Shown here piece by piece: positions 9,601 to 26,013 of a stretch of 64,000 nt of DNA. The notes under the pieces are model-generated. The model ran no database searches. It was not told where the DNA came from and saw nothing but the letters and a program-made list of their open reading frames with translations. A program made the position numbers and the translations under genes. How positions within the stretch are numbered: position 1 is the first letter of the stretch; each line of letters starts with the position of its first letter. This DNA comes from an uncultured Verrucomicrobiota bacterium (GTDB taxonomy: Bacteria; Verrucomicrobiota; Kiritimatiellia; RFP12; UBA1067). The stretch lies in the NCBI GenBank assembly GCA_946544115.1, contig CAMNLW010000002.1, positions 6,729 to 70,728 on the forward strand, given 5' to 3'.

Positions 9601-12600
9601 CGCACGGCTGCGCGGCGGCACAAGGCGGGACGGGAAGTTGCCAAAACCCGCCGGATCAGTCTTCTTGCCGCGATTGACGCGGATGAAGCGATAATCTGCA
9701 AGATCCGCCCACTGGTCGGATGTGTTTTCGACTTCCACCCAGCCGGATTCAAGTCCGTTTACATCCATACCCTCCAATGCGCCGCGATTTAGCGCATCCG
9801 TCGGCTTTGGCATTATCTCGCCGATGCGAAGGACTGAGCTATCGGCCACTTCTGGGTTGATAGCACCTGTTTCCCTGTAAAGGTTTAATGCGGCCAATTG
9901 ATTTACTACATTCTGTCCTGCAAAGTCGGCAAGGACGCCCAATTGCTGCAAGGTTTGGTCTGCAGAGTCGTCTGTGCGCTCGAAAATAGCACTGCCAACT
10001 CCAAAATCAGTATGGACGGAATAAATCTTCATGCCAGGGAGAGGATATTTATTGCGCCGATCATTACCGAATGTAATAGGACCGGAAATTTCAGACGATG
10101 CCCACTGAATAACAGTTGTACTCGCAATCTCTTTGCCATCGCAATAAAGTTTGGCACCTGTTTGTGCGCCAAAGGCAAATGTCCAAACATGTGGCGCTGT
10201 CCAATTTTCAACTACACTTGAGGTTGCGGTGTCTGTTGTGTCAGTATGTCCCAGAGAGAAGGTACCATTGCCATTGGAGTATGCAAAAGCGTAAAATGTG
10301 TCAGAGTTCCGTTTTAATTGGCAACCGATAATTATGCCAGCCGCCCCTTCCGGCAATTCAGCTAGCACGCTTGCACACACTGCGTTGGTGCTGAAGTGGA
10401 GCGTCTCAACGACACCCTTCGAACCGACCTCGATTCCGCCTAAAGGTCCGCCAATCGCATTTGCCTCGAAACTGGACGGGAATGCCCAGCTGATATCGTC
10501 ACTTGTCGAAGAGTGCTCACACTCCAGAGTTTGGATATCTTCAAGCGCAATATCCTTCAGCCATACGGCATCGTCCGCCTCCGGCGTCAAATCCTTGTTG
10601 TCGGACGGATTGTTCATCGCGTAACGTTGCGAGAAGACGAATACGACTTCATGCGCGCCATCGGGAATGTCGATCGCCGCCGCCGTCCAATCGTTCGTGC
10701 ATTCCGTTTGCGCGAGGACGGGCGAATCGTCGAGAAGTACGTCGAAATGCGAATAGTTGTCGCCCGCGAGCATTGCGCCGCCAAAATAAGACTTGTGCTT
10801 GAACGAAAGACGTTTTGGACCAACTATCGTCGCCTTGAGCGGAGTCGTGCACTGATATGCGTAGTCGGCCTGATTGTAGCTGCGAATGGTGTCGCCTTCA
10901 ACCGTCCACGGATATTTCAGGCTTGTCTGCCAAACAGCATCCACGGCATTGGCGAGAAGATCGCACCGAATGAATTTCACCTTGCGAACAGGCAGGAGGT
11001 AATCGGCACCAGCGGGACGCAGCGCCACGGAAAGAGTCTTATCCGCAGTAATATTCACGACAGGATTTGCGGATGAATATTCAAAGGCATCATCCAGTTT
11101 TTCGATTATTGGATCTGAGCCATCTAAAGTATAGTAGATACTCGCGCCCTCAATTGGGGAAGAAAGACGCACCGAAATTCTCTCGGAAAATACGCGCCCA
11201 GAGGTGACTTCCTCGCCCGTGCCATCGACAAAAACAATCGCTTCGTCGCTATACGTCTTCAAGGCGTCGCGCCATTCAGCGACATACGAACATGTCTCAC
11301 GCAGGACTCGCGCGTTATCGTTGTCGGCATCGCCGAGCACTAGCCCGAATTCGCTCGACGAAGTAGAGAAATACCACGAAGCGTCTTTGTCGCCGCCGTA
11401 TGCCATGATTGTATGGCGCGTCACATTGCCGTCTTTGAAATAAAAACCTCTTCCATACGCGAACGGCGAACAGATGTTATTGCCTTGCGCTCTGGCGTGT
11501 CCGCAGCCCATATTGTGGGCGTTCTCGTGAATCATGGTGTGTTGCTTGCCGATATCGACTGCACGGATACTGCAAACGCTGAAAGCGCACTCATGTTGGC
11601 TTGCCACATTATCAGGCGAATTGAGCGGCGAGCTGTTGCCGAGCGTATTACCAGTCACATCCACAAGTAGCGTCACGGTGTCAGCACCATACATCTCGCG
11701 CGCCGCACGCAGGCCGACAGCCGCATCCACGCCTGCCGCCGCAAGCCCAGGCGCCGAATTGATGTCGCCGTACGTGCCGTCGACCTTGCACACTCCGGCG
11801 AGGCGATACGAATAGAACCTGTCGAGTTTGTTCGTGACAAGCACGTCGTTCATCTTTTTGATCTGCTCTTGCGCGAACTCTTCAAGCGTAACGCCCTTGT
11901 TTGCCACGTACGCCTGCGCGCCATTGTCATACGCGACGAGCACATCGACTGTCGGCACACGGAAGCCTTGCTTCGATTTGAGCGAGAGTGTCTTGGTTGT
12001 GCTGTCATAGACAAGTTCGCGCCCAGCTCCAAGCCCATCCACCTGCATGCTCTGCCAATTTACAAGTCCGCCAGGCGCGACAAGCAATGCAACTCCATCC
12101 TCGTGGGGTTCGCCGCCAAGAACCAGGCGCAGAGTCGAACAGTCAAGCGAGCGTGTACCTGTCTGGACAAGAGAAGCACCATGTGCGAGTGTGATAGTCG
12201 ATTGCTTGGCATAAAGATTCGCAATAGTCACTGGCTTGGCAAGGACAAGCCCTGCACCGTTTATCGTCAGGTTTGCCGTAGCGAAACCAGATACATCGCA
12301 TTCTGCGCCAATTGCAAGATAGCCGTTTGTGACCGTGATTGCGGCTCCATCTGCCTTGGTCGATAGAGACCCTGTCACATTGGCGGAAACGGGATTCCAC
12401 TGGTCACCCAAACGTGTGCCATTTGCGCAAACGAGATTCTTTACGGAAAGCGAGCCGCAGAGTTTTGCGTTGCTGCCGTCGAGGGTCACAATGCCGTCGC
12501 CCGTGATTGCGCCCGAGCCTGTGAGCCTAGCCCCGCTTGCGATGGTATATACGCCGGTGTTTTGGTGCTCGGCATTCATCACAAGTGTCATACCACCACC

Positions 12601-15600
12601 AACCGATGTCGCGCCGACATACGTCAACGGTTGACCATTGAAGCTGTTCTGTATGAATGTGCCAACGCCGGAAATGTTTATGCCACCGTTGGCATTGGCG
12701 AAGTTCGCCGTGCCGTCCGCATAGATGATGTTGTTTGTCAGCGTGGCTTTGTTGGAGAACGTGAACGTCGGCGACCCCTCCCGCAGATAGACATACGGTG
12801 AGGCCGTCTTTTCGGCGGATGAATCAAAGAGAGAATCTGCGCTCACTGATATCGTCGGGGCGTTGTATAACTCGAAAGCGCGGCCATAACTCTTGTTATC
12901 GCCAGCGACGGTGAACGAGCCGCCCTTGAAATTCAACCTGCGGCGGAAATTGACCATTCCCCGGACCTCTATCCCGCCGCCGTTTTCGACATTGACAATC
13001 GAATTGTTGCCATTATCCGCCAAAGCATCGCTTCCCTCGAATACAAGCCTTCCGTTGTCCTTTACGGTAATCTGCAAACTCCCGAACAATCCGCGATTGT
13101 TGCCATTTGCGGTAAACACCGTCGTCCCTTCCCCGATGTTGAATTTAGACGTGCTCCAGAATGTGCCGGAATTGTTGAATTGGTTGAACACCTGCGTATT
13201 TCCGGCGCCTGGGGCGACATTGAGCGTCGAGGCCGCTCCTACTATAATAACATTCGAATTCGTCGCGCACGTCGCGGTGGCGTACTGGCCGAATGGCGCG
13301 TTGAATGTGTAGGTCTTTCCATCCGCGACATAGAAAGACGTGGAATCCATCTTGACGGGGACATTGAACGAAATGCTGTTCGGCGGGGAGAAATTCGCAC
13401 CGGGAAGCGATATGTGCGCATCTTCGTCGCCCCTGGCAAAAGTGTATGCGCTTGTAGTTGCAGAGATTTCGGCAACCTTTGGATTTACTGCCCCTTTGAC
13501 TGTGACGACGGGCGCGGCGTTTTCTGCTATATCTCCGAATGTCACCGTTGGCTGGTTTAGATTCGCAAAGCCGTACACCGAATCATTCCACGCAAGTACT
13601 GCCGAATCATCCATCCATCTGCCGTTGCCATTCTGCCCTGCTTCGCCGGACCATGCGAGCGGAACATTTTCCGTAAACGAGACGCTGCGGAGGAAGAGCC
13701 CGTGCGTTTTGCCCGTCGTCGCCCCGATGTTGTTCTGGCTGTACACAAAGCGCACATCATGTGTCCCCTCGGGAATAGCGACACTTCGCGTGATGTCGCT
13801 GGAGGATCCCTTTGTGTCGCTCATAACAGTTTCGCCGTCGATTGTCACGGTAAAGGCGCTGCCCGTCAAGAACATTGTCTTGTATGTGAAACTCATTAGC
13901 TTTGGTCCTTCAACGAGAGTGCCAAGCCATGTATAATTGTGTAGTGCACCGTCGGCGAACGGGTAGTTGAAAATGTAGGTGCTGACGCTTGTGCCCCATT
14001 CATTCTGCGGCGACCCCGACCACACGCGGGTCGAATCGCCCAGCCATGTGCTCATATCGGCATTCCCTTTGTTCTTACTCCTGTAGTTAGATGCAAAAAC
14101 TGCGCTCGCCTTGCCATTCCCGTCAACCGCAATGGCCTTTATCGTGCAGTTTTTCGTTACGCTTATGGGTGACGAATATTGTGCCGATGACGTCGTCGGG
14201 GTCGAGCCATCGGTTGTGTAGTATATCGTCTGCCCGGTCTTGTCTGCTGTGAGTGTGACCGGGATTGTGCCGTTGAACGATGCCACGTCACGAGGTGAAA
14301 TGGCTACTTCGGTCTGGTTGTCCACCAGCTGCAGGTCATCAAGCCAAACGCCGGATTTTTTGTAGTGGGAGTTGCCCTGATTGTAGAGAATGGCGAGTTT
14401 GTGGCTTCCCGCTGGAATGTCTATATAGTCCTGCCGCCATGTCATGCTCGATTCTGCGGTCGAAAAGTAGCCGCCGTCGTCGCAAACCACTGAAAAACGC
14501 CCCCACAGCCCTTTGCCTTCGGAGAGAGAAGGGAAGTTTGACTTGTGCCTGAAATACAACCGCTTGGGACCTTCTGTTATGGTTGAGATGTAGGAGATTT
14601 TCTCCGGTCCGTAAGTTTCGCCGAATTCATAGTTGTGCAGCACCGTCTTTGCGCCGTTTGTCCAGTCAGAATCGCTTGCACCCGACCATGGATAGTCCCC
14701 GTCCGTCTGCCAGGCGAGACCGGCAATCGGCAACGTTCCCTTAACAACCTTGATTGAGCGCATTGACTCCGCGACACCGTTTGTGACAATGCATGCAGTA
14801 AGAGTGGTTGTGTCTTTTATGGTTATGCTTGTATTGAAGCGATATGGTATGGAGGTCGTGTTAGGAGTCGTTCCGTCGAGAGTCAGGTAGATTCTCGCGC
14901 TTTCTGGATAGGAACTGCTACCGGTTAGCGTAATCTGTATTGAATCTTCGAAGATTTGCCCGTGGCTGATATCATTGCCACTGGAGTCAAGGAATCGGAC
15001 ATCCCACTCGTACGGAATGGAATGCTCGCGCCATTCGCTGACGCCTTTGTAGGAGAGAGTCAGGACTTTGCGGTTGTTGTTCTTTTCCTCCGTACCTACG
15101 GGTACGCCATATTCCTTCGGCGTTATGTCCGGAGTGGAGTAGTATGGGATTGCTTCGAAATAATAGTCAGCATCTGATGTGTAGTTGTATCCCATCACAG
15201 TATAGCGCGGTTTCCCAGATGCATCAAGGAAGTGGTAGCCGCAGGAATACGAAGTCGATTGGGGGCCAGATTTTGATCCTTGCCGGTTGCTATGTCCGCA
15301 GCCCATGTTGTGTCCAACCTCGTGCGACATAGTGTAGCGGTTCCAGACGCGCCGGATATGGCAGACGTTGCAGGTCTGCCCGATGCTGTTTGCTACCACC
15401 GCATTACTTGCAATGGCATCGCCGTCCGCACCACCCAGTGGATAGCCTATACCAGTTGTATAGGAACTTGCGCTTTCATCGACATCCACAAGCAGCGTGA
15501 CGATATCTGCGCCATAATAATCTCGCAGCGCGGGTATATGGCTGAAAGGCGCTTCGCCTACACGTAGCGAATTCAGAATCGGGTTGGTTATGTTTGGATA

Positions 15601-16368
15601 TGTCGCATTGACTTGAGTGATGCCGACAAGACGGTAGAAAAAGAGGTGGTCAAGCTGCGACTTCTGTAGCACTATGTTCATCTTGTTGATGGCATAGTCG
15701 GCAAACTCCTCGATCGTATCGGCATCTGGGCAGTTACCACCTTCCACCCACGCCTTCGCCCCCTTGTCAAAGGCGACTAGGATATCTACGACGCTCTTTT
15801 GCTCTGCGAGAGGGAATTCATTGCCGGATGCGCCAAGCAGCGTGCGCGACTTTTTGGTTGATGTGGTCTTGGTTTCTTCGACGGCTGGCTGAGGGACCTC
15901 GATATCGCCGCCGCATGTGCCGCACTCGCCGTCATCCATCTGCGAATTGTCGCGCTCGACTATGAGCACCTTGCCGTCCTTGCAGCGGACGGTGTACTGC
16001 CGCCGGTTCATGAAATCGTCCACGGATATGCGGGCGGACTTTTCGCTTACCTTCACAATCGCCGAGGCCGAGCCATTCGCATCCTTCGCGATAAAGCTCT
16101 GCCCCGCGATACCGGCCGGCGGTGCGGAAACGATTCTGAGGGCATAGTCCACATCGCCGAAAAGCCTGAGGTTCAGCGTGTCGCCTACTGCGACTGCGGG
16201 GACTGTCCCCACATTCGTCGACATCTCCGCACGCCGCAACACAGGCGCTTCGGCGTCATGCGCCACGCCACTGGAGAAGTCGAGTGTATACTCCGCCGCA
16301 CAGACCGCAACCGACCAAAAGAGCGACAACGCGATAAGCAGCACCGTCGCATTTTTTCCTCCAGACAT
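6604..16368 (-). CDS. Giant secreted multidomain protein (3254 aa): two metzincin-like Zn-metalloprotease domains, chitobiase/Fn3-like domains, a beta-helix region, a CotH kinase-like domain and a C-terminal lamin-tail domain
   Basis: Start assigned to the MSGGKNATVLLIALSLFWSVAVCAAEY signal peptide, with GGAGG 8 nt upstream and TGGTATAAT further upstream. The HExxHxxGxxH zinc site appears twice (HEVGHNMGCGHS; HENAHNMGCGHA). Chitobiase-C-like segments are present (TLDGTTPN..., YYTLDGSDP). Gly/Asn/Thr-rich beta-helix repeats are present. CotH motifs are present (DYVRIDLRGNTSAGFTKKGHGLRFAK; VCIYYDNPDMKEGARGTGTWMPLGYDFNLTFGQHY; KFRRLYLRRLRTLMD). A C-terminal LTD is present (DMSGWTLRFGVEWTLPAGTVCDSNDCIYVV). 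Confidence 0.7.
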   Translation of the reverse strand: MSGGKNATVLLIALSLFWSVAVCAAEYTLDFSSGVAHDAEAPVLRRAEMSTNVGTVPAVAVGDTLNLRLFGDVDYALRIVSAPPAGIAGQSFIAKDANGSASAIVKVSEKSARISVDDFMNRRQYTVRCKDGKVLIVERDNSQMDDGECGTCGGDIEVPQPAVEETKTTSTKKSRTLLGASGNEFPLAEQKSVVDILVAFDKGAKAWVEGGNCPDADTIEEFADYAINKMNIVLQKSQLDHLFFYRLVGITQVNATYPNITNPILNSLRVGEAPFSHIPALRDYYGADIVTLLVDVDESASSYTTGIGYPLGGADGDAIASNAVVANSIGQTCNVCHIRRVWNRYTMSHEVGHNMGCGHSNRQGSKSGPQSTSYSCGYHFLDASGKPRYTVMGYNYTSDADYYFEAIPYYSTPDITPKEYGVPVGTEEKNNNRKVLTLSYKGVSEWREHSIPYEWDVRFLDSSGNDISHGQIFEDSIQITLTGSSSYPESARIYLTLDGTTPNTTSIPYRFNTSITIKDTTTLTACIVTNGVAESMRSIKVVKGTLPIAGLAWQTDGDYPWSGASDSDWTNGAKTVLHNYEFGETYGPEKISYISTITEGPKRLYFRHKSNFPSLSEGKGLWGRFSVVCDDGGYFSTAESSMTWRQDYIDIPAGSHKLAILYNQGNSHYKKSGVWLDDLQLVDNQTEVAISPRDVASFNGTIPVTLTADKTGQTIYYTTDGSTPTTSSAQYSSPISVTKNCTIKAIAVDGNGKASAVFASNYRSKNKGNADMSTWLGDSTRVWSGSPQNEWGTSVSTYIFNYPFADGALHNYTWLGTLVEGPKLMSFTYKTMFLTGSAFTVTIDGETVMSDTKGSSSDITRSVAIPEGTHDVRFVYSQNNIGATTGKTHGLFLRSVSFTENVPLAWSGEAGQNGNGRWMDDSAVLAWNDSVYGFANLNQPTVTFGDIAENAAPVVTVKGAVNPKVAEISATTSAYTFARGDEDAHISLPGANFSPPNSISFNVPVKMDSTSFYVADGKTYTFNAPFGQYATATCATNSNVIIVGAASTLNVAPGAGNTQVFNQFNNSGTFWSTSKFNIGEGTTVFTANGNNRGLFGSLQITVKDNGRLVFEGSDALADNGNNSIVNVENGGGIEVRGMVNFRRRLNFKGGSFTVAGDNKSYGRAFELYNAPTISVSADSLFDSSAEKTASPYVYLREGSPTFTFSNKATLTNNIIYADGTANFANANGGINISGVGTFIQNSFNGQPLTYVGATSVGGGMTLVMNAEHQNTGVYTIASGARLTGSGAITGDGIVTLDGSNAKLCGSLSVKNLVCANGTRLGDQWNPVSANVTGSLSTKADGAAITVTNGYLAIGAECDVSGFATANLTINGAGLVLAKPVTIANLYAKQSTITLAHGASLVQTGTRSLDCSTLRLVLGGEPHEDGVALLVAPGGLVNWQSMQVDGLGAGRELVYDSTTKTLSLKSKQGFRVPTVDVLVAYDNGAQAYVANKGVTLEEFAQEQIKKMNDVLVTNKLDRFYSYRLAGVCKVDGTYGDINSAPGLAAAGVDAAVGLRAAREMYGADTVTLLVDVTGNTLGNSSPLNSPDNVASQHECAFSVCSIRAVDIGKQHTMIHENAHNMGCGHARAQGNNICSPFAYGRGFYFKDGNVTRHTIMAYGGDKDASWYFSTSSSEFGLVLGDADNDNARVLRETCSYVAEWRDALKTYSDEAIVFVDGTGEEVTSGRVFSERISVRLSSPIEGASIYYTLDGSDPIIEKLDDAFEYSSANPVVNITADKTLSVALRPAGADYLLPVRKVKFIRCDLLANAVDAVWQTSLKYPWTVEGDTIRSYNQADYAYQCTTPLKATIVGPKRLSFKHKSYFGGAMLAGDNYSHFDVLLDDSPVLAQTECTNDWTAAAIDIPDGAHEVVFVFSQRYAMNNPSDNKDLTPEADDAVWLKDIALEDIQTLECEHSSTSDDISWAFPSSFEANAIGGPLGGIEVGSKGVVETLHFSTNAVCASVLAELPEGAAGIIIGCQLKRNSDTFYAFAYSNGNGTFSLGHTDTTDTATSSVVENWTAPHVWTFAFGAQTGAKLYCDGKEIASTTVIQWASSEISGPITFGNDRRNKYPLPGMKIYSVHTDFGVGSAIFERTDDSADQTLQQLGVLADFAGQNVVNQLAALNLYRETGAINPEVADSSVLRIGEIMPKPTDALNRGALEGMDVNGLESGWVEVENTSDQWADLADYRFIRVNRGKKTDPAGFGNFPSRLVPPRSRAIFYTSERYSNSKSQKDSAFENGKFKGKPEIFKDYGNILVWGDKVNPKKSPFVRLYYMPNAATTNVVDTVVIPSDLPEGWSIIVGDAAEGEGTRRWMCPTPTRGRANTSTDRLKRIGPNVGPLYEISSLKKTDVANEFARPVPPAKPGEDYAITLPINPVMNPNGTFSPRTKDKIESIKLVYRKDLDDATLTTNVVTMTTKSTDKKAWGDQYTAAIPASYFPAAGHLMQWKVLITDGEGVEWTSPSFNNPDDGYEWYGTIVEPDTATQMSATLPTWHMFASGNHLTQMDVDADKQDRSKVPNQARVAIYDSSTSNYYDYVRIDLRGNTSAGFTKKGHGLRFAKAHPLTMTDVVTGEPIEEIRKTSLISEFADPSYMRQMIAFWLWRRMGNLVPFDFPVRCNLNGEFYQLAFNSERFTDELIEDVYGLDKFGYGYKNVGTMKSGPKNDNTYGTSAGGAEKKTPDDEDEKNVDVLEDELRYYLKQYGAQSVGEDVENLTRFVVEKFDLPAWLNYLASARITQEMDDVWANVCIYYDNPDMKEGARGTGTWMPLGYDFNLTFGQHYRDGGMSASGLKAQDDWFKCHPFYGGNRVRCYASPAMTSTINNGNDGFESVLQSAKFRRLYLRRLRTLMDQELKEPGTAEADTPFMVKMREMADLMRADSRLDGAKWLNDGSDAAIDVWPDGKRPSDIDEGIEDIWNNYVVPRREHLYVTHSVTNTAWKIGYGSRYNAGIPEAQSSIESLAPNITLDFSRHAEGVVVVSNANDEVVDMSGWTLRFGVEWTLPAGTVCDSNDCIYVVSDRRAYIAAHLDELTDQVIVGNADFGGIGAVVLNSSDGTCLHGLSSADGVLTFAAKNDKAAAAVVKTIAPTLTADDKEAGLSADNLVVRAVAAGEGTYQAVVDVNPATVAAPRFAAAGDDPPVAAVTDDAGETIVSSSIDNAVIGLWYGYEVADELGESAAFAPDAESFIRATANGPMTIRSSPRTEPCGFFRVKALPVKP

Positions 16369-16445
16369 GTTCCACCTCCTCTGTTTGGTGCAATTATACC
16401 ATAATTTACCCTGCACCGCCCAATCGGCGAACACCGGATTGCACG

Positions 16446-17810
16446 CTAGTTCTTGAACGAGTGAATCGGCGCTGGGATGCGGCCGCGTCGGGAAACAAGC
16501 CCTTCGCATGAAAACTTAGACACTTTCATAACCGGCGCGTGGCCTAGGAGTCCGCCGAAGTTCACGCTGTCGCCGACTTTCTTCCCCGCGACCGGTATCA
16601 CTCGAACCGCCGTCGTCTTCTGGTTCACCATTCCTATCGCCGCTTCGTCGGCTATTATACCGCTTATCGTCGCCGCGCTCGTGTCGCCGGGTATCGCAAT
16701 CATGTCCAGCCCGACGGAGCATACGCACGTCATGGCCTCAAGCTTTTCTATCGTGAGCGCGCCGGCGTTCACCGCGTCGATCATGCCCTGGTCCTCCGAG
16801 ACGGGTATGAACGCGCCGGAGAGCCCGCCCACATAAGAGCTCGCCATTACGCCTCCCTTCTTCACCTGGTCGTTGAGGAGCGCGAGCGCGGCGGTCGTGC
16901 CGGGAGCGCCCGGTTCTTCAAGACCGATTTCGCGCAGGATGTCCGCAACGCTGTCGCCGACAGCCGGTGTTGGCGCGAGCGAGAGGTCGATTATGCCGAA
17001 TGGCACGCCCAGGCGCTTCGCCGCCTCCTGCGCGACAAGCTGCCCGACACGCGTTATCTTGAAAGCCGTGCGCTTTATCGTCTCGCAGAGCGTCTCAAAG
17101 TCCGCCCCGCGAATGGACTTGAGGACGTGGTTCACAACACCAGGACCCGACACGCCGACGTTTATCACCGCGTCGGCTTCGCTCACGCCGTGGAACGCAC
17201 CCGCCATGAACGGGTTGTCGTCCGGCGCGTTGCAGAGGACTACGAGCTTCGCGCAGCCGATGGAATCGCGGTCTTTTGTCCGCTCTGCCGTCGCTTTCAC
17301 TATTTCGCCCATGAGCCGCACGGCGTCCATGTCGATTCCCGTTTTGGTGGAGCCCACGTTCACCGACGAGCATAGGCGCTCGGTCGTCGCCATCGCTTCG
17401 GGGATTGAGCGTATGAGCAGCTCGTCGGCGAGGGTCATTCCCTTCGAGACGACCGCCGAATAGCCGCCTATGAAGTTGACGCCAAGCTTCTTCGCCGCGC
17501 GGTCGAGGGTTTTGGCTATCTTCACGAAATCGCCCGGCTTTTTGCAGCACGCCGAGCCGACGATCGCCGCGGGGGTTATGGATATGCGCTTGTTCACGAT
17601 CGGTATTCCGAATTCGCGCCCTATCTCGTCACCAGTCTTCACAAGGTCTTTGGCGAGACGGGTCAACTTGGCGTATATCCTGTCGCAGGTCGTCTTGAGG
17701 GACGCGTCGGCGCAGTCGAGAAGCGACACGCCCATCGTAATCGTGCGCACGTCCAGATTCTCCTCGAGGATCATCTTGTTCGTCTCGAGGACTTCGAATA
17801 TATTGATCAT
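16446..17810 (-). CDS. UPF0210 (DUF711, PFL-like) family protein
   Basis: 454-aa product. N-terminus MINIFEVLE...[14 protein letters not shown] and the conserved length and motifs of the UPF0210 family. Forms the usual operon with the ACT-domain partner. Confidence 0.6.
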
Positions 17811-17815
17811 GGCTC

Positions 17816-18088
17816 TCAGACCCTGTGCATCTTCTCGAAAATCTCGCTCTTCTGGCAGCGTATCTTGAGTCCCATCGAAACGCCTATCTCTCCCAGATCG
17901 GCCGCGACGTCCTCGAAGCTCTTGCAGCAGCCGGTGATGTCGACTATCATCATCATGTTGAAATAGTTCTGGACTACCGTCTGGGAGATGTCCAGAATGT
18001 TGATCTTGTTCTTGGCGAGATACGCGCTTGTTTTGGCGATGATGCCGACGGTATCCTTGCCGACGACTGTGATGATTGCTTTTTTCAT
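17816..18088 (-). CDS. ACT-domain protein, UPF0237 family
   Basis: [51 protein letters not shown] is the classic UPF0237 ACT fold. Start taken 9 nt after TGGTATAAT; the track ORF is an upstream extension. Confidence 0.6.
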
Positions 18089-18098
18089 GACCATCGTA

Positions 18099-18581
18099 TT
18101 ATACCATAATATACGGTTCTCCACAGAACGAGCATACCGCGCCGTCGTGCACCGCCGCTCCGCAACCGGGGCAGCGCCTTTCAAGAACTTCGCCGCATAC
18201 GGCGCAGTAACGCCCTCCCGCAGGATCGGCCTCCTCCCGGTCGGGTCGCGCGAACACGCGCCCCTCCACCTCGTAGCGGCGGTTCGATGGACATGACGCG
18301 TTCGGACAGTACCCCGTATGCGCCGCAGCTCTCTTCCCCTCCGCCACGATGCGCGCCGGCTCTGCAGCATCTTCTTCCTCATTGGACGGCAGCGGTATGC
18401 CGAATTTTTTCGACAGCCTTCCTATGACATCGTCATTGAGCTTGGTGCCGTCGCCCTGCTCGAACATTGAAATAGCCGACTGCTTGCAGCCAAGTTCAGA
18501 GGCCAGCTCGCCTTGCGATATCTTAGCCGCACGGCGCGCTTCCTTGATCTTGAAGCAGAACTCTGGACTTAGGTTTGTCAT
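18099..18581 (-). CDS. XRE-family HTH DNA-binding protein with C-terminal zinc-ribbon Cys clusters
   Basis: The N-terminus IKEARRAAKISQGELASELGCKQSAISMFEQG is a Cro/C1-type HTH. The C-terminus has CPNASCP...CAVCGE...CPGCG...CSFCGEP. Its upstream region is the DnaA-box cluster. Confidence 0.55.
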   Translation of the reverse strand: MTNLSPEFCFKIKEARRAAKISQGELASELGCKQSAISMFEQGDGTKLNDDVIGRLSKKFGIPLPSNEEEDAAEPARIVAEGKRAAAHTGYCPNASCPSNRRYEVEGRVFARPDREEADPAGGRYCAVCGEVLERRCPGCGAAVHDGAVCSFCGEPYIMV

Positions 18582-18589
18582 GGGTACAT

Positions 18590-18725
18590 ATTATGGACTT
18601 TATTTTATCAACTTGCAAGGGGGAAGTTATCAACATTATCAACAGGGTTATCAACTTATCAACACCATGTAGACTACTTTGTTGATAACCCGTGTTGATA
18701 TTATCAATACATCCGTGTAAGAATC
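18590..18725. promoter_or_regulatory. Dense cluster of at least 8 DnaA-box-like 9-mers (TTATCAACA / TGTTGATAA and variants)
   Basis: Plus-strand reading: ttatcaact, ttatcaaca, ttatcaaca, ttatcaact, ttatcaaca, then inverted tgttgataa, tgttgatat, then ttatcaata. All lie within ~130 bp. Confidence 0.55.
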
Positions 18726-19441
18726 TCCGACGGCAGCAGGTACTCTTCGCCGTTCTTGTGGGCGATGTTGTACTTGGCAAGCTCCTCCAGAACCGGACCC
18801 GAAAGTATATTGCCGTTGTCGTTGAAGAACTTCTCTAGAGCTGCGCGCTTTTTAGCGAGGTTTCCGCTGGACTCGTTGGCTACAAGCACGCCCTCCAGCA
18901 GTTGTGCACGGCGAACGCGCCCTTCGGCCTCGGCGCGGTCGCGCGCCTCTTTGACTGCCTCTATCACATGGTCGCGCGTTTCGCCTGGGAAGCGGTCGGG
19001 AAGCTCTATGTCACGGTCGAGAAGAGCAAGCGCGTTGGGATTTCTAGACTGTTCATCAAAGTGGCGCTCCTGCTCCTCGGCAAGCCTGGCCGAAAGTTCG
19101 GCAACTCTTATCTTAAGGCCGTTCACCTCTGCCGCCGCCGCCGCGAGAGCCTTGTTAGCATCATCAAGCTCGGCCTTCAAGCGCTCGTTTTCACTCTTCA
19201 GACCGTCGTTTGACTCATTTTCAAGCGTCTGTATCTTCTGTTGAAGAGTTTCAACCTTCTCCTCAAGTTTGGCCTTGTCTACTGCAAGCTCCTCTACAAC
19301 GGCTTTCTGTACGTCCAGTTCGGGCGCAGTCTCTTCCACAGTCTCAGCTTCGGCAGAGGTCTCCTCGACCTTTTCTTCGGCCTCATCTTCTCCGTTCGCA
19401 GCAGCCATTATGCTCTGTGCAAGAAATTCTTCCATTCTCAT
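18704..19441 (-). CDS. Acidic coiled-coil protein of unknown function
   Basis: 245-aa product. Glu-rich N-terminus and heptad-like region (LEEKVETLQQKIQTLENE...LKAELDDANKAL). Start overlaps the stop of the upstream methyltransferase (ATGA). Confidence 0.35.
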   Translation of the reverse strand: MRMEEFLAQSIMAAANGEDEAEEKVEETSAEAETVEETAPELDVQKAVVEELAVDKAKLEEKVETLQQKIQTLENESNDGLKSENERLKAELDDANKALAAAAAEVNGLKIRVAELSARLAEEQERHFDEQSRNPNALALLDRDIELPDRFPGETRDHVIEAVKEARDRAEAEGRVRRAQLLEGVLVANESSGNLAKKRAALEKFFNDNGNILSGPVLEELAKYNIAHKNGEEYLLPSEILTRMY

Positions 19442-20676
19442 GACAGATTCTGTCCTTTCAGTTCACAACCGGGGTATATGAAAAGCCGGCAGTCGATTGG
19501 TCCGTTGAAGAACGGAACTCTTGTCTTGTAATAAAGGTTTACGAGACGCGCGAGATCGGGATTACCGGTTATAAGCCCTCCAGTCCAGCCGCCGCACTTC
19601 TCGTTCATGAAAGTCCCTATGCGCTCGTAGACGGGCGCGAGCTCTTCGTATGTTCCAAGCCTGATTCCGTATTCCGGGTTGAAAAACACACATCCTTTGC
19701 CTTTTCCTTCGGGAACAGGCGTTTCGGCGAAGTCGCACACCTTGAACTCGATGTATGGCGCGACTCCCGCGGCAATGGCATTGTAGTGGGCGTTTTCAAC
19801 TGCATCCGGCGATATGTCGGTCGCCACAATGCAAGGCATTGAATCGGTCCTTTCCTCTTCTTTGGCGTCGAGGACCATTTCCTTCCATATCTGCTCCGGC
19901 GTCGCGCCGGCCCTCTGGCGAGGCGCAACCTTTGCTGCTGTCTCGCCCGGAATCATGCGCGTATACCCTTTTATCGACTGGAAGGCAAAATGTCCCTTCA
20001 GCGAACCCGGCGCTTTGTTCATCGCCATCATCGCCGCCTCTATCGCAGGCGTTCCGCTTCCGCACATCGGCGCCAGAAAAGGCGCGCGTCTGTCCCAATG
20101 CATTGCCATTATGCACGCCGCCGCAAGAGTTTCCTGCATCGGCGCCGAACCGGGAATCTTGCGGTAGCCGCGCTTTGAAAGCGGTTCCCCCGAAGTGTCG
20201 AGGTATATTATCACCTCATCCCTCTCCCAGTATACGAACACCGCCGACCCTATGTTCTCGCCGCCGGAATCAGGCCGGCGCTGACATCTTTCGCGCATTC
20301 TGTCGGCTATAGCGTCCTTCGTATAGAGCGAAGGCAGCCTTGTATCGCGTATTGTGTTGTTGTGGACGACCGACGAAACAGAGAAATACCCGTCCGCCTC
20401 TATGATGTTCTCCCAGTCTATCGAAAACGCAGCCTCGTAAAGGTCCCTTATGTTGCGGCAACGCGTCCGGAGAAGCGGCACCAGCACGCGGTGGGCCGTC
20501 CTCAGGCGCAGATTGAGCTTCATGACATCTCGCATGGAGCCCCTCACAACCACTGTGTTCTCTGTGACCTCTATTGGCTTGTAGCCAAAATCCCTTACCT
20601 CTATCTCCGTCCAGCGCGAAAGTTCCTTCGCGCAGGATATTATTATCGGATAGTTCCTGTCCGTCCAGATTTTCAT
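19438..20676 (-). CDS. THUMP-domain class I SAM-dependent RNA methyltransferase (RlmL/Trm14-like)
   Basis: 412-aa product. N-terminal ferredoxin-like/THUMP region, then a methyltransferase core with MCGSGT (motif I) and the catalytic NPEYG (N/D-PPY-type) motif. Confidence 0.6.
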   Translation of the reverse strand: MKIWTDRNYPIIISCAKELSRWTEIEVRDFGYKPIEVTENTVVVRGSMRDVMKLNLRLRTAHRVLVPLLRTRCRNIRDLYEAAFSIDWENIIEADGYFSVSSVVHNNTIRDTRLPSLYTKDAIADRMRERCQRRPDSGGENIGSAVFVYWERDEVIIYLDTSGEPLSKRGYRKIPGSAPMQETLAAACIMAMHWDRRAPFLAPMCGSGTPAIEAAMMAMNKAPGSLKGHFAFQSIKGYTRMIPGETAAKVAPRQRAGATPEQIWKEMVLDAKEEERTDSMPCIVATDISPDAVENAHYNAIAAGVAPYIEFKVCDFAETPVPEGKGKGCVFFNPEYGIRLGTYEELAPVYERIGTFMNEKCGGWTGGLITGNPDLARLVNLYYKTRVPFFNGPIDCRLFIYPGCELKGQNLS

Positions 20677-21816: not shown

Positions 21817-22071
21817 TTCTCTTTCCTTTCTCTGCCCACTGAGGGGCTTTGGGTTGTTATTGTATCAAATACTGTTACTGAAATAAAGGGTTAATTTACT
21901 ATTACCTATTAGGTGTGTCGACAGTGTAGACAACTCGCGAAACCCCTGCGCCGCAAGGCTTTCACGCGTTTTGATCTGTTGATATCCGTTCATGCTGCCG
22001 GTTGACATCTTTTCACAACCGCCTTTCCCTGTTGACAACCCGGGTTTTGCGGACAGTTTATCTACAGGATT

Positions 22072-23490
22072 TCAGACGCTTTTATCCTCCACCCCGTCCA
22101 GCCCCAGGCCGAAATCCGTGACAATCGAAATCAGGTTTTCCTTGAGTTCCGGTTCTACATCCAGCCTCTTCGCTATCGTCTTCACTCCGTGAAGAACAGT
22201 CGCGTGCGACTTTTCAAACTCCTTCGCGATCTCCGGCAGGCTCTTTGTCGTGTACTTTCGCGCGATATACATCGCGAGCTGGCGCGGCGTAACAAGCGAC
22301 ACCGTCCTTTCTATTGAAAGTATCTGCTCCACCGTCACGGAGTATTTAGCCGCCACCGCCGCCTGAATCTCCTTTATAGTGACCTTTTTCTGCTTCTTCT
22401 CCTTTTCTATGAAGTCTTTGAGAAGGTGCGATAGTATCTCGTTGTTGAGTTTTATGGTGCTGTCGAGTTTCATCATAACCGAAACCTTCCCAAGCGCGCC
22501 CTCCATCGCCCTCACATGGCTCTTTATGTTCTGGGCTATGAATTTAAGCGTGTCTTCTGGAACTGACGGTACCATACCCTCTGACTTCTTCTTCAGAATC
22601 GCAAGACGCGTCTCGTAGCTCGGCTGCTCGATCTCCTGGACCATACCCCATTCAAATCGCGATATAAGCCTCGGTTCTATCCCTGGCAGATCCTTCGGGG
22701 CGACATCGCTAGTCATTACAATCTGCTTGCCGTCGTTATGCAGAGAGTTGAATGTATTGAAGAATTCCTCCTGAAAGTCCTTTCCTCGGCTCATGAACTG
22801 TATATCGTCGACCAGGAGAACGTCTATCTTGCGGTACCTGTCGCGAAACTGCTGTATAGAGGAGCTCGTAAGTGCGTTCACATATTCGTTCAGAAACCTC
22901 TCGGCTGTTAGATAGCATACCGACGAAGAAGGATTCTTCCTCTTTATGTCGTTTCCTATAGCCTGCATTATGTGGGTTTTGCCAAGCCCCGTCCCGCCGT
23001 GGATGAAAAGAGGATTGTACCCCTTCTTGCCCGGCTCCTTCGCAGCGCCTTTCGCCGCCGCGTGAGCCCAGCTGTTCGACGGACCCGTCACGAACTCTTC
23101 AAACGTGTAGTCTTCGTTGAGTGGCATAGTCGAAACGAAATGCGCCGCCGGCTTTTCAGGCGCCGCCGCGTCCTTGCTCTTGCGATGCGGCACCACTATC
23201 GCCGGGTTCAAGCTCTCGTCGAACTTGAACTCCAGCCTTATAGCCTCGCCCCCGTCGGATAGAACAAGCGCGTTTTTGAGTTTCGTCGAGTAGTTGTCGC
23301 GCAGCATCTCCGCCGCAAACTTGTTCGCGGTGAATATGGTGTAAAGACCGTCCTTCTCGGTTATTGAAGTCACCATGGAGAAATGGCGCCTCGCCTGATC
23401 TTTCTCCTCTTGGGTGGATAGCGTCGAGACATAAAGGTCTTTCGCCTTTTGCCAAGCGTCTTTCGCCCTTGTGTCCTGCATGTCTTTCAT
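22072..23490 (-). CDS. dnaA: Chromosomal replication initiator protein
   Basis: 472-aa product. AAA+ Walker A GGTGLGKTH, sensor motifs and a C-terminal DNA-binding domain (VTIKEIQAAVAAKYSV...). TGGTATTAT promoter upstream. Confidence 0.9.
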   Translation of the reverse strand: MKDMQDTRAKDAWQKAKDLYVSTLSTQEEKDQARRHFSMVTSITEKDGLYTIFTANKFAAEMLRDNYSTKLKNALVLSDGGEAIRLEFKFDESLNPAIVVPHRKSKDAAAPEKPAAHFVSTMPLNEDYTFEEFVTGPSNSWAHAAAKGAAKEPGKKGYNPLFIHGGTGLGKTHIMQAIGNDIKRKNPSSSVCYLTAERFLNEYVNALTSSSIQQFRDRYRKIDVLLVDDIQFMSRGKDFQEEFFNTFNSLHNDGKQIVMTSDVAPKDLPGIEPRLISRFEWGMVQEIEQPSYETRLAILKKKSEGMVPSVPEDTLKFIAQNIKSHVRAMEGALGKVSVMMKLDSTIKLNNEILSHLLKDFIEKEKKQKKVTIKEIQAAVAAKYSVTVEQILSIERTVSLVTPRQLAMYIARKYTTKSLPEIAKEFEKSHATVLHGVKTIAKRLDVEPELKENLISIVTDFGLGLDGVEDKSV

Positions 23491-23955
23491 CTTTTTCTTC
23501 TTTCAAGTTTCGCATATATAATACCATAATTTTTGACGCCATGGGCATAAAAGAAATAGTCATATGTCTACACTTTATCAACAGCCTCATGTTGATAACT
23601 ATTGTCTCCCGCGCGAGGACGCAATTTGAATGTTCCTGAATATATACCGTTGCCGACGCCCTGTTACAATTGACCCTCCCAAACAACCCCTCGCGAAACC
23701 ACTGATTTTATTGCGGCTTTTGGCCACCACCCCTCTCAAAGCCCTATAAACATTGGCTCTCGACGCCTGTTGATAACCGTTAGATAATGGTTCACATAAG
23801 TTCACAATTTTCCCCTTGACAAAATGCCGCCTTGTCATGAAACCCTTGTTTTTCAGGCTTTTTTGAACATTTCTCCTCCGCAGATTGACGCATAATACAG
23901 AAAATATTTTTGTTCACAACCTAGTAGATAATATGGTATAATGCCCGCCAGTGAA
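23491..23955. promoter_or_regulatory. dnaA-mnmG intergenic region with DnaA-box-like motifs; candidate oriC or dnaA autoregulatory region
   Basis: A 465-bp non-coding spacer, lower in GC than its flanks. Contains ttatcaaca, tgttgataa (twice) and TGTGAAC-type variants (gttcacataag, gttcacaatt, ttgttcacaac). Also contains divergent promoters for dnaA and mnmG. Confidence 0.45.
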
Positions 23956-26013
23956 ATGAACAGCAATCACTTCGAAATCATCGTTGTCGGCGGCGGACAC
24001 GCCGGAGCGGAAGCAGCCCTCGCGTCCGCCAGAATGGGAGCCAAAACACTCCTCGTCACCTCATGCCGTGACGCCATCGCGCGAATGCCCTGCAACCCTT
24101 CTATCGGAGGCCTCGCCAAAAGCCATCTCGTCTACGAACTGGACGCAATGGGCGGCGAAATGGGTAGAAACGCCGATGCCACGGCCCTTCAGTCAAAAAC
24201 CCTCAACCTCAGCCGCGGCCCCGCAGTATGGGCCACCCGCGCCCAATGCGCCAAGCTGGAATACACCCGCAGAATGCAGCAGGTTGTCGAAACCCAGCCC
24301 AACTTGACCGTACTCGAGGACAGCGTAATAGACTTGATCGTCGACAATGATGGTCAAACTCTGTCTCCTCCAAGTGCTGATGGCCAAACTGCGCTTGACC
24401 AATTCTCAGTCTGCGGAGTCAAAACTCTTCTCAGTGGCTCTTTCTACGCACGCTCCATAGTCGTAACCGCCGGTACTTCCCTTCGTGGCAGAATATGGAT
24501 AGGAAAAGAGTCAAAAGAGAGCGGCGGCGATTCCCGCCCTGCCGTGAACCAGCTCTCGGCCGCGCTTTCCCGCCTTGGCTTTGACTTGATACGCCTTAAA
24601 ACCGGTACTCCTCCGCGCCTCAAGGCCTCATCCTGCGATTTTACCAGATGTTTGCGGCAGGATGGCGAGTCGCCCCGCCCATTGTTCCACGTGGAACAAT
24701 CTACAGCCTCCGATTCCTCTTCCATATCATCGCCTCCAGGCGCCGCAATGTTCCACGTGGAACAATCTGCCGCCTCCGATCCCTCTTTCATATCATCGCC
24801 TCCAGGCTCCGCAATGTTCCACGTGGAACAATCTACAACCTCCGATCCATCTTCCATATCATCGCCTCCAGGCGCTGCAATGTTCCACGTGGAACAATCT
24901 GCCGCGCTTTCTCCTGCTGAAAAGGGCGGCAATCCCCCGATGTTCCACGTGGAACATTGCCCGCCGCTGCCCGAAATGCCGTGCTGGCAGACCCATACAA
25001 CGCCTCTCACCCACCAGATAATACGGGATAATCTATCCAATTCAGCCCTCTACGGCGGCGCGATCCAGGGAACCGGCGTTCGATACTGCCCGTCGATAGA
25101 GGATAAAATCGTCCGCTTTGCCGACGCCGACCAGCACCATGTTATGCTGGAACCCGAGGACTCCGCCGGGACGGTGATCTATCCCAACGGTCTCAGCTGC
25201 AGCCTGCCGCGCGATGTACAGGAGAAAATGGTTCATTCTGTGCCGGGCCTTGAAAACGCCGAGTTCCTGGCTTACGCCTATGCCATAGAATATGACGGAA
25301 TCGACGCGCGCGAGCTTAAACATTCCCTTGAATCCAAGCGCATACGCGGCCTGTTCTTTGCCGGACAGGTCAACGGCACGACCGGCTACGAGGAAGCCGC
25401 CGCACAAGGCTTCATGGCAGGCGTGAACGCCGTCTTTTCCGCGCGCGGTGAAGAGCCGCTTGTCTTGAGCCGTCAAGATGCCTACATAGGCGTCATGATA
25501 GACGATCTCGTGACGAAGGGGACAGATGAACCCTACAGAATCTTCACCAGCCGCGCCGAGCGCCGCCTTATCCTGCGCCAGGATAACGCCCGCTACCGCC
25601 TTGCCGATGCCGCCGAGCGGATAGGCATACGTCCGCGAGCCTTCCTGGACGAGACGCGCCGCTTTATGGCGATCCTCGATAAAGCCCTTGCCGAAAACCG
25701 CGCTGCCACCGTTATCGACGCCTCTCTGCCGCCGGAAGCATGCCGACGCCTTGACGATGAACTTGCAATTATGCGACGCTACGCGCCATACATAGAGCAG
25801 GAAAAACGGGCGGCAGAACGGGCCAAAGCCGACGAAACATTGGCCATTCCCCGGTGGCTGGACTACGACAAGTGCGTCGCCGTGAGGTTCGAAAGCCGCG
25901 AAAAGCTGAAGAAGTACCGCCCCGAAAACCTTGCGCAGGCTTCTCGCATACCGGGCGTGAACCCCAGCGATGTGGCGATTCTTGCTATTATAATAAGGAG
26001 AGGCCATGTATAA
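23956..26013 (+). CDS. mnmG: tRNA uridine-5-carboxymethylaminomethyl modification enzyme MnmG/GidA, carrying an in-frame repeat insertion
   Basis: [21 protein letters not shown] (FAD-binding GGGHAG), [13 protein letters not shown] and [16 protein letters not shown] all align with E. coli MnmG. Start taken at 23956 because the ATG at 23941 lies inside the TGGTATAAT -10 element. Confidence 0.85.
24672..24960 (+). repeat. In-frame tandem repeat inside mnmG (4 x 66 bp plus a 60-bp variant), each unit carrying the perfect palindrome TGTTCCACGTGGAACA
   Basis: Palindromes start at about 24683, 24749, 24815, 24881 and 24941. Encodes repeated FHVEQS(A/T)(A/T)SD(P/S)S(S/F)ISSPPG(A/S)AM units. The native MnmG segment (P-x-FSF in E. 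coli) corresponds to the final PMFHVEH copy. Confidence 0.85.

Follow-up and report, generated by a model that had tools for sequence, protein, structure and literature searches.

We found that a dense cluster of DnaA boxes lies in the promoter of xre, the gene for a conserved regulator with an XRE-type helix-turn-helix (HTH) and a zinc ribbon, in a 64,000-nucleotide stretch of DNA from an uncultured bacterium of the class Kiritimatiellia (contig CAMNLW010000002.1; we call the whole stretch the window). The cluster occupies positions 18605-18709. The best explanation is probably that it is a non-origin DnaA-box cluster through which DnaA would control xre and which would also titrate DnaA. Members of the Kiritimatiellia, most of them uncultured, are abundant in gut and rumen and belong to the Planctomycetes-Verrucomicrobia-Chlamydiae (PVC) group. 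To our knowledge, nothing is known about how they control replication.

We scanned the window for 9-mers within one mismatch of TTATCAACA and found eight in the cluster, four of them perfect and four with one mismatch. They fill 105 bp, mostly inside the 122-bp spacer between xre and cc245 (18582-18703), plus the adjoining bases of cc245, which encodes a 245-aa coiled-coil protein. An earlier note on this DNA had described five direct boxes followed by two inverted boxes and one more direct box, and all eight lie where it had placed them. The boxes, together with a possible weak ninth one, are as follows.

18605-18613, plus strand: DnaA box TTATCAACT, one mismatch, within the spacer between the xre -35 and -10 elements and touching the -35 hexamer
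18627-18635, plus strand: DnaA box TTATCAACA, perfect, promoter-proximal, with CTTCCCCC between it and the -35 hexamer
18636-18644, plus strand: DnaA box TTATCAACA, perfect, head-to-tail with the 18627 box at a 9-bp period
18648-18656, plus strand: DnaA box TTATCAACT, one mismatch
18656-18664, plus strand: DnaA box TTATCAACA, perfect, overlapping the 18648 box by one base (8-bp period)
18668-18676, minus strand: possible weak ninth box TAGTCTACA, three mismatches to TTATCAACA and one to the origin box TTGTCTACA
18680-18688, minus strand: DnaA box TTATCAACA, perfect, oriented against the five-box array, which it faces
18693-18701, minus strand: DnaA box ATATCAACA, one mismatch
18701-18709, plus strand: DnaA box TTATCAATA, one mismatch, a near-palindrome with the 18693 box; it includes the cc245 stop codon (18704-18706)

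At the place equivalent to the weak ninth box, relatives have degenerate boxes, such as GTGAACA. We compared the box count with random expectation. The 131-bp segment 18582-18712 holds eight boxes, against a mean of 0.08 and a maximum of 3 in 20000 composition-preserving shuffles. The exact 8-mer TTATCAAC occurs nine times in the window, with 1.1 expected and at most four in any of 100 dinucleotide-preserving shuffles. The window as a whole has 20 boxes with one mismatch or fewer: eight in the cluster, three in the dnaA-dnaN spacer, three (all perfect) in the dnaA-mnmG spacer, and only six in the other 63 kb. The cluster is thus denser than either dnaA spacer, as had been proposed, since these hold three perfect boxes in 450 bp (dnaA-mnmG) and three one-mismatch boxes in 255 bp (dnaA-dnaN). 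Its distance needed correction. It had been put 3.3 kb downstream of dnaN; it lies 2.0 kb past the end of dnaN (its stop codon), and the dnaN start and dnaA-dnaN spacer are 3.1-3.2 kb away.

To place the cluster in a wider context, we used a comparison set of 80 Kiritimatiellia genome loci that encode the XRE protein. The nearest of them comes from a metagenome-assembled genome labelled Verrucomicrobia bacterium UBA3783 (99% identity). Homologues of the XRE protein numbered 899, and those with a source name were Kiritimatiellia. The gene order dnaA-dnaN-rlmL-cc245-xre is kept in most of the 80 loci, with synteny to dnaA in 57. Array position and orientation are conserved in relatives whose XRE proteins are as little as 45-50% identical.

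We found that the boxes keep a fixed register with the xre promoter. The cluster overlaps this promoter, as the earlier note had said, with xre starting at 18581 on the minus strand; that note was also right that the cluster lies just downstream of the coiled-coil gene, which ends at 18704. The promoter reads as follows.

18590-18618, minus strand: xre promoter, sigma-70-type; -35 TTGCAA at 18613-18618, 17-nt spacer, -10 CATAAT at 18590-18595; 9 of 12 positions match the consensus

The -10 hexamer and the ATG are only 8 nt apart, and xre has no Shine-Dalgarno sequence, so the xre mRNA appears to be leaderless or nearly so. Read in the xre sense, two or three rightward boxes are followed by five leftward boxes, the last of which lies between the -35 and -10 elements; the 8-nt gap and the ATG come after the -10 hexamer. 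In the window, one box therefore sits in the TTGCAA-17-CATAAT spacer and four lie immediately upstream. The -10 hexamer is kept in 76 of 81 sequences (the 80 loci plus the window), at 7-9 nt from the start codon in 64 of the 76. We then counted boxes by their offset from the start of the -10 hexamer in 75 sequences, which are the 76 with a -10 hexamer minus the near-identical L001. The best-conserved position is -40 (the 18627 box of the window), occupied in 55 of 75 loci. It is followed by -49/-50 (18636 box; 44/75), -60 to -62 (18648 box; 27/75), -69/-70 (18656 box; 25/75), -18, inside the promoter spacer (18605 box; 21/75), and -114 (18701 box; 15/75). Counted from the transcription start, the best-conserved boxes fall between about -81 and -44. 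We also observed a run of four to six C directly 5' of the -35 element (CCCCCTTG; 18619-18626 in the window) that is conserved in most of the 80 loci. The run is kept even in several loci without DnaA boxes.

We also found that the array travels with xre. It is kept in 17 loci whose upstream neighbour is a gene other than cc245. It stays upstream of xre in five loci with no dnaA within 6 kb (L011, L012, L038, L056, and L079), in two with a 1.3-2.1 kb insert between cc245 and xre (L036 and L049), in four with xre turned around with respect to cc245 or placed next to dnaA (L022, L030, L039, and L067), and in loci that lack cc245 (L073 and L075-L077). In L080, xre directly follows dnaN, and the array is present with 10-11 boxes. 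Because the array follows xre in these rearranged loci, it is a feature of the xre promoter and not of the cc245 3' end or of a fixed distance from the origin. The mean box count is 5.3 for the region upstream of xre, 2.4 for that upstream of dnaA, and 1.7 for the dnaA-dnaN spacer; in 42 of 57 loci, the xre count exceeds the other two combined. Of the three readings that the earlier note had offered (origin, DnaA titration site, and strongly DnaA-controlled promoter), the last is the one that the fixed offsets from the -35 and -10 elements and the 17 rearranged loci support best.

Eight loci in the set have unexpected bin names. L008, L009, L010, L026, L029, L069, and L072 carry the Kiritimatiellia dnaA-dnaN-rlmL-cc245-xre block (L016 carries xre alone), and the names of their bins are Gemmiger, Barnesiella, Muribaculaceae, Anaerovoracaceae, Faecalibacterium, Methanomethylophilaceae, and Bacillota. 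These eight contigs are evidently mis-binned.

The motif in the array is the same as that of the boxes upstream of dnaA and of the boxes in the box-trio module described below. In the 80 loci, there are 9.5 perfect copies of TTATCAACA per kb upstream of xre and 3.4 upstream of dnaA; the dnaA-dnaN spacer has 1.15 per kb and the remaining sequence 0.015. The motif is the top 8-mer both in the xre-upstream set and in the dnaA-upstream set (57 relatives). The canonical box TTATCCACA, which TTATCAACA matches at eight of nine positions with A instead of C at position 6, is absent upstream of xre and of dnaA in the compared loci. The dnaA-dnaN spacer of the window has three near-copies of TTATCAACA, and three perfect copies lie upstream of dnaA in the dnaA-mnmG spacer.

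23575-23583, plus strand: DnaA box TTATCAACA, perfect
23590-23598, minus strand: DnaA box TTATCAACA, perfect
23768-23776, minus strand: DnaA box TTATCAACA, perfect

Because the motif is enriched at dnaA and paired beside DnaA-trios in the dnaA-dnaN spacer, we take TTATCAACA to be the DnaA box of the Kiritimatiellia lineage, in place of TTATCCACA. A concern raised earlier, that DnaA of this organism might prefer another consensus, is thereby settled in favor of the boxes, with TTATCAACA as the lineage consensus.

We next looked at the DnaA protein. E. coli DnaA makes base-specific contacts through R399, P423, D433, H434, T435, and H439 (PMC2533591, PMC7561715). The window DnaA keeps R399, P423, H434, and H439 and has the changes D433S and T435A; helix 5 (residues about 430-440) reads KSHATVLH in the window and RDHTTVLH in E. 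coli. Of 63 Kiritimatiellia orthologues of DnaA, 62 have A at position 435, and T, S, K, or Q occurs at position 433. We suggest that the changes at 433 and 435 cause the preference for A over C at box position 6. In L100 and L181, which are unrelated low-GC bacteria with TTATCAACA boxes at the origin, DnaA has S at position 435.

The box itself is known from other bacteria. A published table of basal unwinding systems (BUS) gives 3'-AATAGTTGT-5', which equals TTATCAACA, as the species-specific standard box of, for example, Borrelia and a Bacteroidetes genome, and TTATTAACA for two Verrucomicrobia (PMC8287927 supplement). We scanned metagenomes for the tandem box pair TGTTGATANTGTTGATAA. The matches listed were mostly unrelated low-GC contigs, with no xre loci among them. 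In at least four contigs from unrelated low-GC bacteria, a tandem TTATCAACA pair adjoins dnaA or dnaN, and a homologue of xre was not detected in any of the four loci as fetched. The pair lies within the dnaA-dnaN spacer in L100 and L199; a clear six-trio run follows after a 3-nt spacer in L100, and an AT-rich, less regular trio run is present in L199. Five other unrelated low-GC metagenome contigs (L142, L200, L107, L163, and L173) have 9-14 TTATCAACA-type boxes within 300 bp; in one of them, the contig also has an mnmG homologue at a distance of about 7 kb. Such sites may represent origins or additional box clusters.

The origin of replication is probably a B. subtilis-type box-trio module between dnaA and dnaN. 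We identified the following elements in the dnaA-dnaN spacer of the window.

21855-21933, minus strand: probable oriC unwinding module (BUS)
21925-21933 and 21916-21924, minus strand: origin tandem boxes TTGTCTACA and CTGTCGACA, respectively, followed by the spacer CAC
about 21895-21912, minus strand: DnaA-trios CTA ATA (G) GTA ATA GTA, followed by an AT-rich tract
21859-21871, minus strand: dnaN promoter TATTTGATACAAT

When the dnaA-dnaN spacers were aligned, they showed the same order from dnaA to dnaN: two head-to-tail boxes, a 3-nt spacer, trios, an AT-rich tract, and a conserved dnaN promoter. The trios are NTA/NTT triplets (CTA ATA GTA and so on) whose complement is the 3'-GAT-5'-type DnaA-trio; in the window, the run is interrupted by one extra G. 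The BUS of B. subtilis consists of box, box, CCGG, and trios (PMC8287927 supplement). The window module shares this layout, and the upstream box lies 12 nt from the trios in both (PMC8287927). A strict pattern (box, 2-4 nt, at least three trios) was found in 30 of 63 dnaA-dnaN spacers, 25 of these with at least four trios. It was found in 2 of 57 dnaA-upstream regions and in 6 of 80 xre-upstream regions, none of the latter with at least four trios. At the window cluster, the only runs of three to four trios beside boxes consist of neighbouring box sequence. No AT-rich unwinding element is present at the cluster beyond the promoter, where the AT content reaches its maximum of 0.72 in 40 bp; the dnaA-dnaN spacer reaches 0.78, together with trios. 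GC skew is negative over 16-27 kb, and the cumulative G-C minimum of the first 36 kb falls at about 27.4 kb, in a signal that is noisy, short, and confounded by gene strand. The mnmG gene is on the plus strand yet has clearly negative skew, and skew alone would misplace the origin by several kilobases. Taken together, the comparison indicates that the cluster is a non-origin element, that is, not oriC.

According to our model, DnaA would bind the array cooperatively, with two boxes facing the five-box array and a box also present between the -35 and -10 elements. Box occupancy would set the transcription of the leaderless xre mRNA, which in the window genome would include the ACT-domain and DUF711 genes downstream, and the level of active DnaA would thereby control the xre operon. 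The direction of this regulation is a guess. We lean slightly toward repression at high DnaA-ATP, with release after initiation, over activation, because the core promoter is near consensus and one box lies in the promoter spacer here. The array would also sequester DnaA beside the origin, 3.2 kb away, because it has more good boxes than the origin and lies so close to it; its capacity would double right after initiation. DnaA titration of the datA or DARS type is a plausible second role of the array. The boxes, their conservation, their promoter register, and the motif they share with the sites at dnaA and in the box-trio module are observed; DnaA binding, the direction of regulation, and titration are inferred.

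Several observations weigh against this model. The best-conserved boxes lie upstream of the -35 element, where they would suit an activator too and not just a repressor, and the box in the promoter spacer is present in only 21 of 75 loci. Several box pairs are palindromic and could also be read by a dimeric HTH protein. Sequence alone cannot tell transcriptional control from titration. The 80 loci come from related genomes and are non-independent samples. In six of them (L013, L014, L016, L025, L054, and L074), none syntenic with dnaA, the xre promoter is kept with zero boxes. Because these six orthologous promoters are box-less, DnaA control of xre would seem to be dispensable in some lineages. 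E. coli DnaA needs box position 6, which is C in the E. coli consensus, and recognition of TTATCAACA by DnaA rests on comparative inference.

We weighed the model against readings in which the array has nothing to do with xre transcription. The array could be purely a replication-control element, either a datA-like site, acting as a sink or in DnaA-ATP hydrolysis, or a DARS-like one for reactivation, with its overlap of the xre promoter incidental. It has more high-quality boxes than oriC at a distance of 3.2 kb, its box orientations are opposed as in DARS cores, and the oriC-proximal clusters of B. subtilis restrain initiation. We nevertheless consider this reading unlikely. The distances of the boxes from the -35 and -10 elements are fixed, the array follows xre where no dnaA lies within 6 kb and an origin-proximal sink loses its positional logic, and no IHF-type site can be defined in the cluster. 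Replication control is compatible with the preferred explanation, and the two are non-exclusive. That the array is the real DnaA-oligomerisation region of oriC, as the earlier note had considered, or half of a split origin, is very improbable. The cluster has the top box density in the window, dnaA-dnaN is close by, and the converging box groups recall E. coli oriC with its left and right halves. Against this, a complete box-trio-AT module is present at 21855-21933 in the dnaA-dnaN spacer, conserved trio runs are found there and not at the cluster (30 of 63 spacers versus 6 of 80 xre-upstream regions, none of these with four or more trios), and the cluster has no unwinding element besides the promoter. 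It is also confined to a 122-bp spacer between two conserved coding sequences, and it relocates with xre. The cumulative G-C minimum, in a noisy skew, lies across dnaA from the cluster.

A further reading is that the repeats are DnaA-box lookalikes that serve as operators of XRE itself or of another transcription factor, and such a protein might bind near dnaA too. XRE-family regulators commonly autoregulate their own promoters, and convergent or near-palindromic pairs do occur, at 18693-18709 in the window and as TTATCAACA-N2-TGTTGATAA in L056, L071, and L080. Most boxes, on the other hand, are arranged head-to-tail with a period of 8-9 bp, unlike dimer operators. The same motif makes up the box pair beside the DnaA-trios at the origin, and it occurs at dnaA or dnaN of unrelated bacteria whose loci, as fetched, showed no xre homologue. 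The recognition helix of XRE, GCKQSA[LI]SMFE, shows no variation, and this holds for the six genomes with a box-less xre promoter as well. We judge this reading improbable, somewhat more so than a pure replication-control element. A functionless chance or low-complexity AT-rich repeat would fit a spacer that is 66% AT in a genome of 55-64% GC. This probability is negligible: none of the 20000 shuffles reached four boxes, against eight observed and 0.08 expected, and the conservation of position and orientation in relatives with 45-50% XRE identity refutes it. We also rejected a phage or plasmid iteron (the locus is chromosomal and syntenic with dnaA in 57 of 80 loci), parS (no similarity to TGTTNCACGTGAAACA), and an IHF site (checked by eye, the tandem boxes have no match to the consensus WATCAANNNNTTR).

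From 23490 down to 6604, every gene lies on the minus strand; mnmG, which is on the plus strand, diverges from dnaA. The genes around the cluster are as follows.

23941-26013, plus strand: mnmG
22072-23490, minus strand: dnaA
20722-21816, minus strand: dnaN
19438-20676, minus strand: RlmL/THUMP methyltransferase (rlmL)
18704-19441, minus strand: cc245, encoding a coiled-coil protein of 245 aa whose C-terminal helical domain (115 aa) is conserved; the stop codon of the gene lies in the outermost box
18099-18581, minus strand: xre, encoding a protein of 160 aa that has an XRE-type HTH at the N terminus and a double zinc ribbon at the C terminus (Pfam HTH_3, 1.5e-10; DZR, 6.5e-5)
17816-18094, minus strand: ACT-domain protein (PRK00194 family), starting 4 nt past the xre stop codon
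16446-17810, minus strand: DUF711/PRK05313 protein, starting 5 nt past the ACT gene
6604-16509, minus strand: 3301-aa surface protein with reprolysin-like metallopeptidase, CHB_HEX_C/Fn3-associated, and CotH kinase domains

Because the gaps are only 4-5 nt, xre, the ACT gene, and the DUF711 gene probably form one operon in the window genome, with DUF711 last. The XRE protein had only generic HTH and zinc-ribbon matches in NCBIfam and Pfam. Its alignment has eight invariant Cys in the zinc ribbon, and its AlphaFold model (16-sequence alignment; pLDDT 62) is confident in the HTH part only. The cc245 protein is strongly conserved, with an invariant N-terminal ELDxQKxVVE, a variable coiled coil, and the 115-aa C-terminal domain, and its gene lies between rlmL and xre in 57 of 80 loci. 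Its homologues numbered 2242, mostly without a source name, and the few JGI names were generic. One of these, "regulator of replication initiation timing," we judged to be a spurious coiled-coil similarity. Pfam and NCBIfam gave no family for cc245 beyond coiled-coil noise, and a Foldseek search of its model (pLDDT 73) against the PDB gave nothing with an E-value below 1. The suggestion that cc245 and XRE have origin-associated functions is thus supported by their conserved synteny, the sole basis for it, and not by any fold or family evidence.

An Rfam scan of the whole window found no RNA family. The region of the 3301-aa protein gene has a GC content of 52-55%, versus 62-64% on the left flank. 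Five consecutive very large open reading frames (1279-1719 aa) occupy 28558-51370; three have Calx-beta domains, one is thioredoxin-like, and one has no Pfam match. They probably encode cell-surface proteins.

The locus offers Kiritimatiellia a DnaA-box consensus, TTATCAACA, with a candidate structural cause in the replacement of DnaA D433 and T435. It also points to where their origin lies and how it is built: between dnaA and dnaN, as a box-trio module like that of B. subtilis, here in a PVC lineage. The xre gene becomes the first candidate member of a DnaA regulon in Kiritimatiellia, with a promoter that out-boxes the origin and is kept across the class. Box-density scoring in the style of Ori-Finder, given the right consensus, would pick the xre promoter over the true unwinding site. 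A more far-reaching idea is that the XRE protein is a class-wide DnaA-gated effector, a switch for replication status, together with a re-tuned DnaA helix 5 (S/T/K/Q at 433 and A at 435) that shifts box position 6 from C to A. We regard this as doubtful. If it were true, XRE would be comparable in function to Sda or GcrA while unrelated to them in sequence, would be read out via the strongest DnaA-binding locus of the chromosome, and would drive ACT-DUF711 or cell-cycle genes or feed back on dnaA or oriC.

Most likely, the cluster is a further, class-wide case of a known type, the non-origin DnaA-box cluster on a DnaA-regulated promoter. Previous work in B. subtilis demonstrated that DnaA stably binds six dense box clusters outside oriC and regulates the adjacent genes (Ishikawa 2007, PMC2533591; Okumura 2012, PMC3245932). 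DnaA activates sda and represses ywlC and yydA, and deletion of the non-oriC clusters leads to early initiation (PMC2533591, PMC3245932). Like the window cluster, those at sda, ywlC, and yydA consist of dense intergenic consensus boxes near the origin that overlap the promoters of neighbouring genes. B. subtilis and Kiritimatiellia also share a dnaA-dnaN-type origin, and the buffering role proposed here would resemble the restraint that the B. subtilis clusters place on initiation. In contrast, the cluster described here belongs to another phylum (PVC, Kiritimatiellia), has the variant box TTATCAACA, and is known from sequence alone. Its target is a class-wide XRE-HTH/zinc-ribbon regulator, with the boxes in a fixed promoter register.

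The E. coli datA locus is likewise a high-affinity box cluster outside oriC that is replicated early and able to sequester DnaA. It cannot work without its IHF site, and it promotes DnaA-ATP hydrolysis; we identified neither feature at the cluster. Nor does datA move together with a single gene as part of its promoter. DARS1 and DARS2 of E. coli share with the cluster a small size, mixed box orientation, and a place outside oriC. In DARS, ADP is released from DnaA by a core of three boxes, whereas the cluster has 8-9 boxes, mostly head-to-tail, with two or three (18680-18709) opposed to five (18605-18664). The BUS of oriC (Richardson 2019, PMC6669920; Pelliciari 2021, PMC8287927) shares the same DnaA box and tandem head-to-tail pairs; the cluster has no adjacent DnaA-trios or AT-rich unwinding tract, and the BUS of this genome lies in the dnaA-dnaN spacer. 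Finally, in the promoters of E. coli dnaA and nrdAB and of Caulobacter gcrA, DnaA boxes at or beside the core promoter couple transcription to the initiator, as we propose for xre. The xre promoter has far more boxes than most promoters of this kind, and its product is an uncharacterised regulator.

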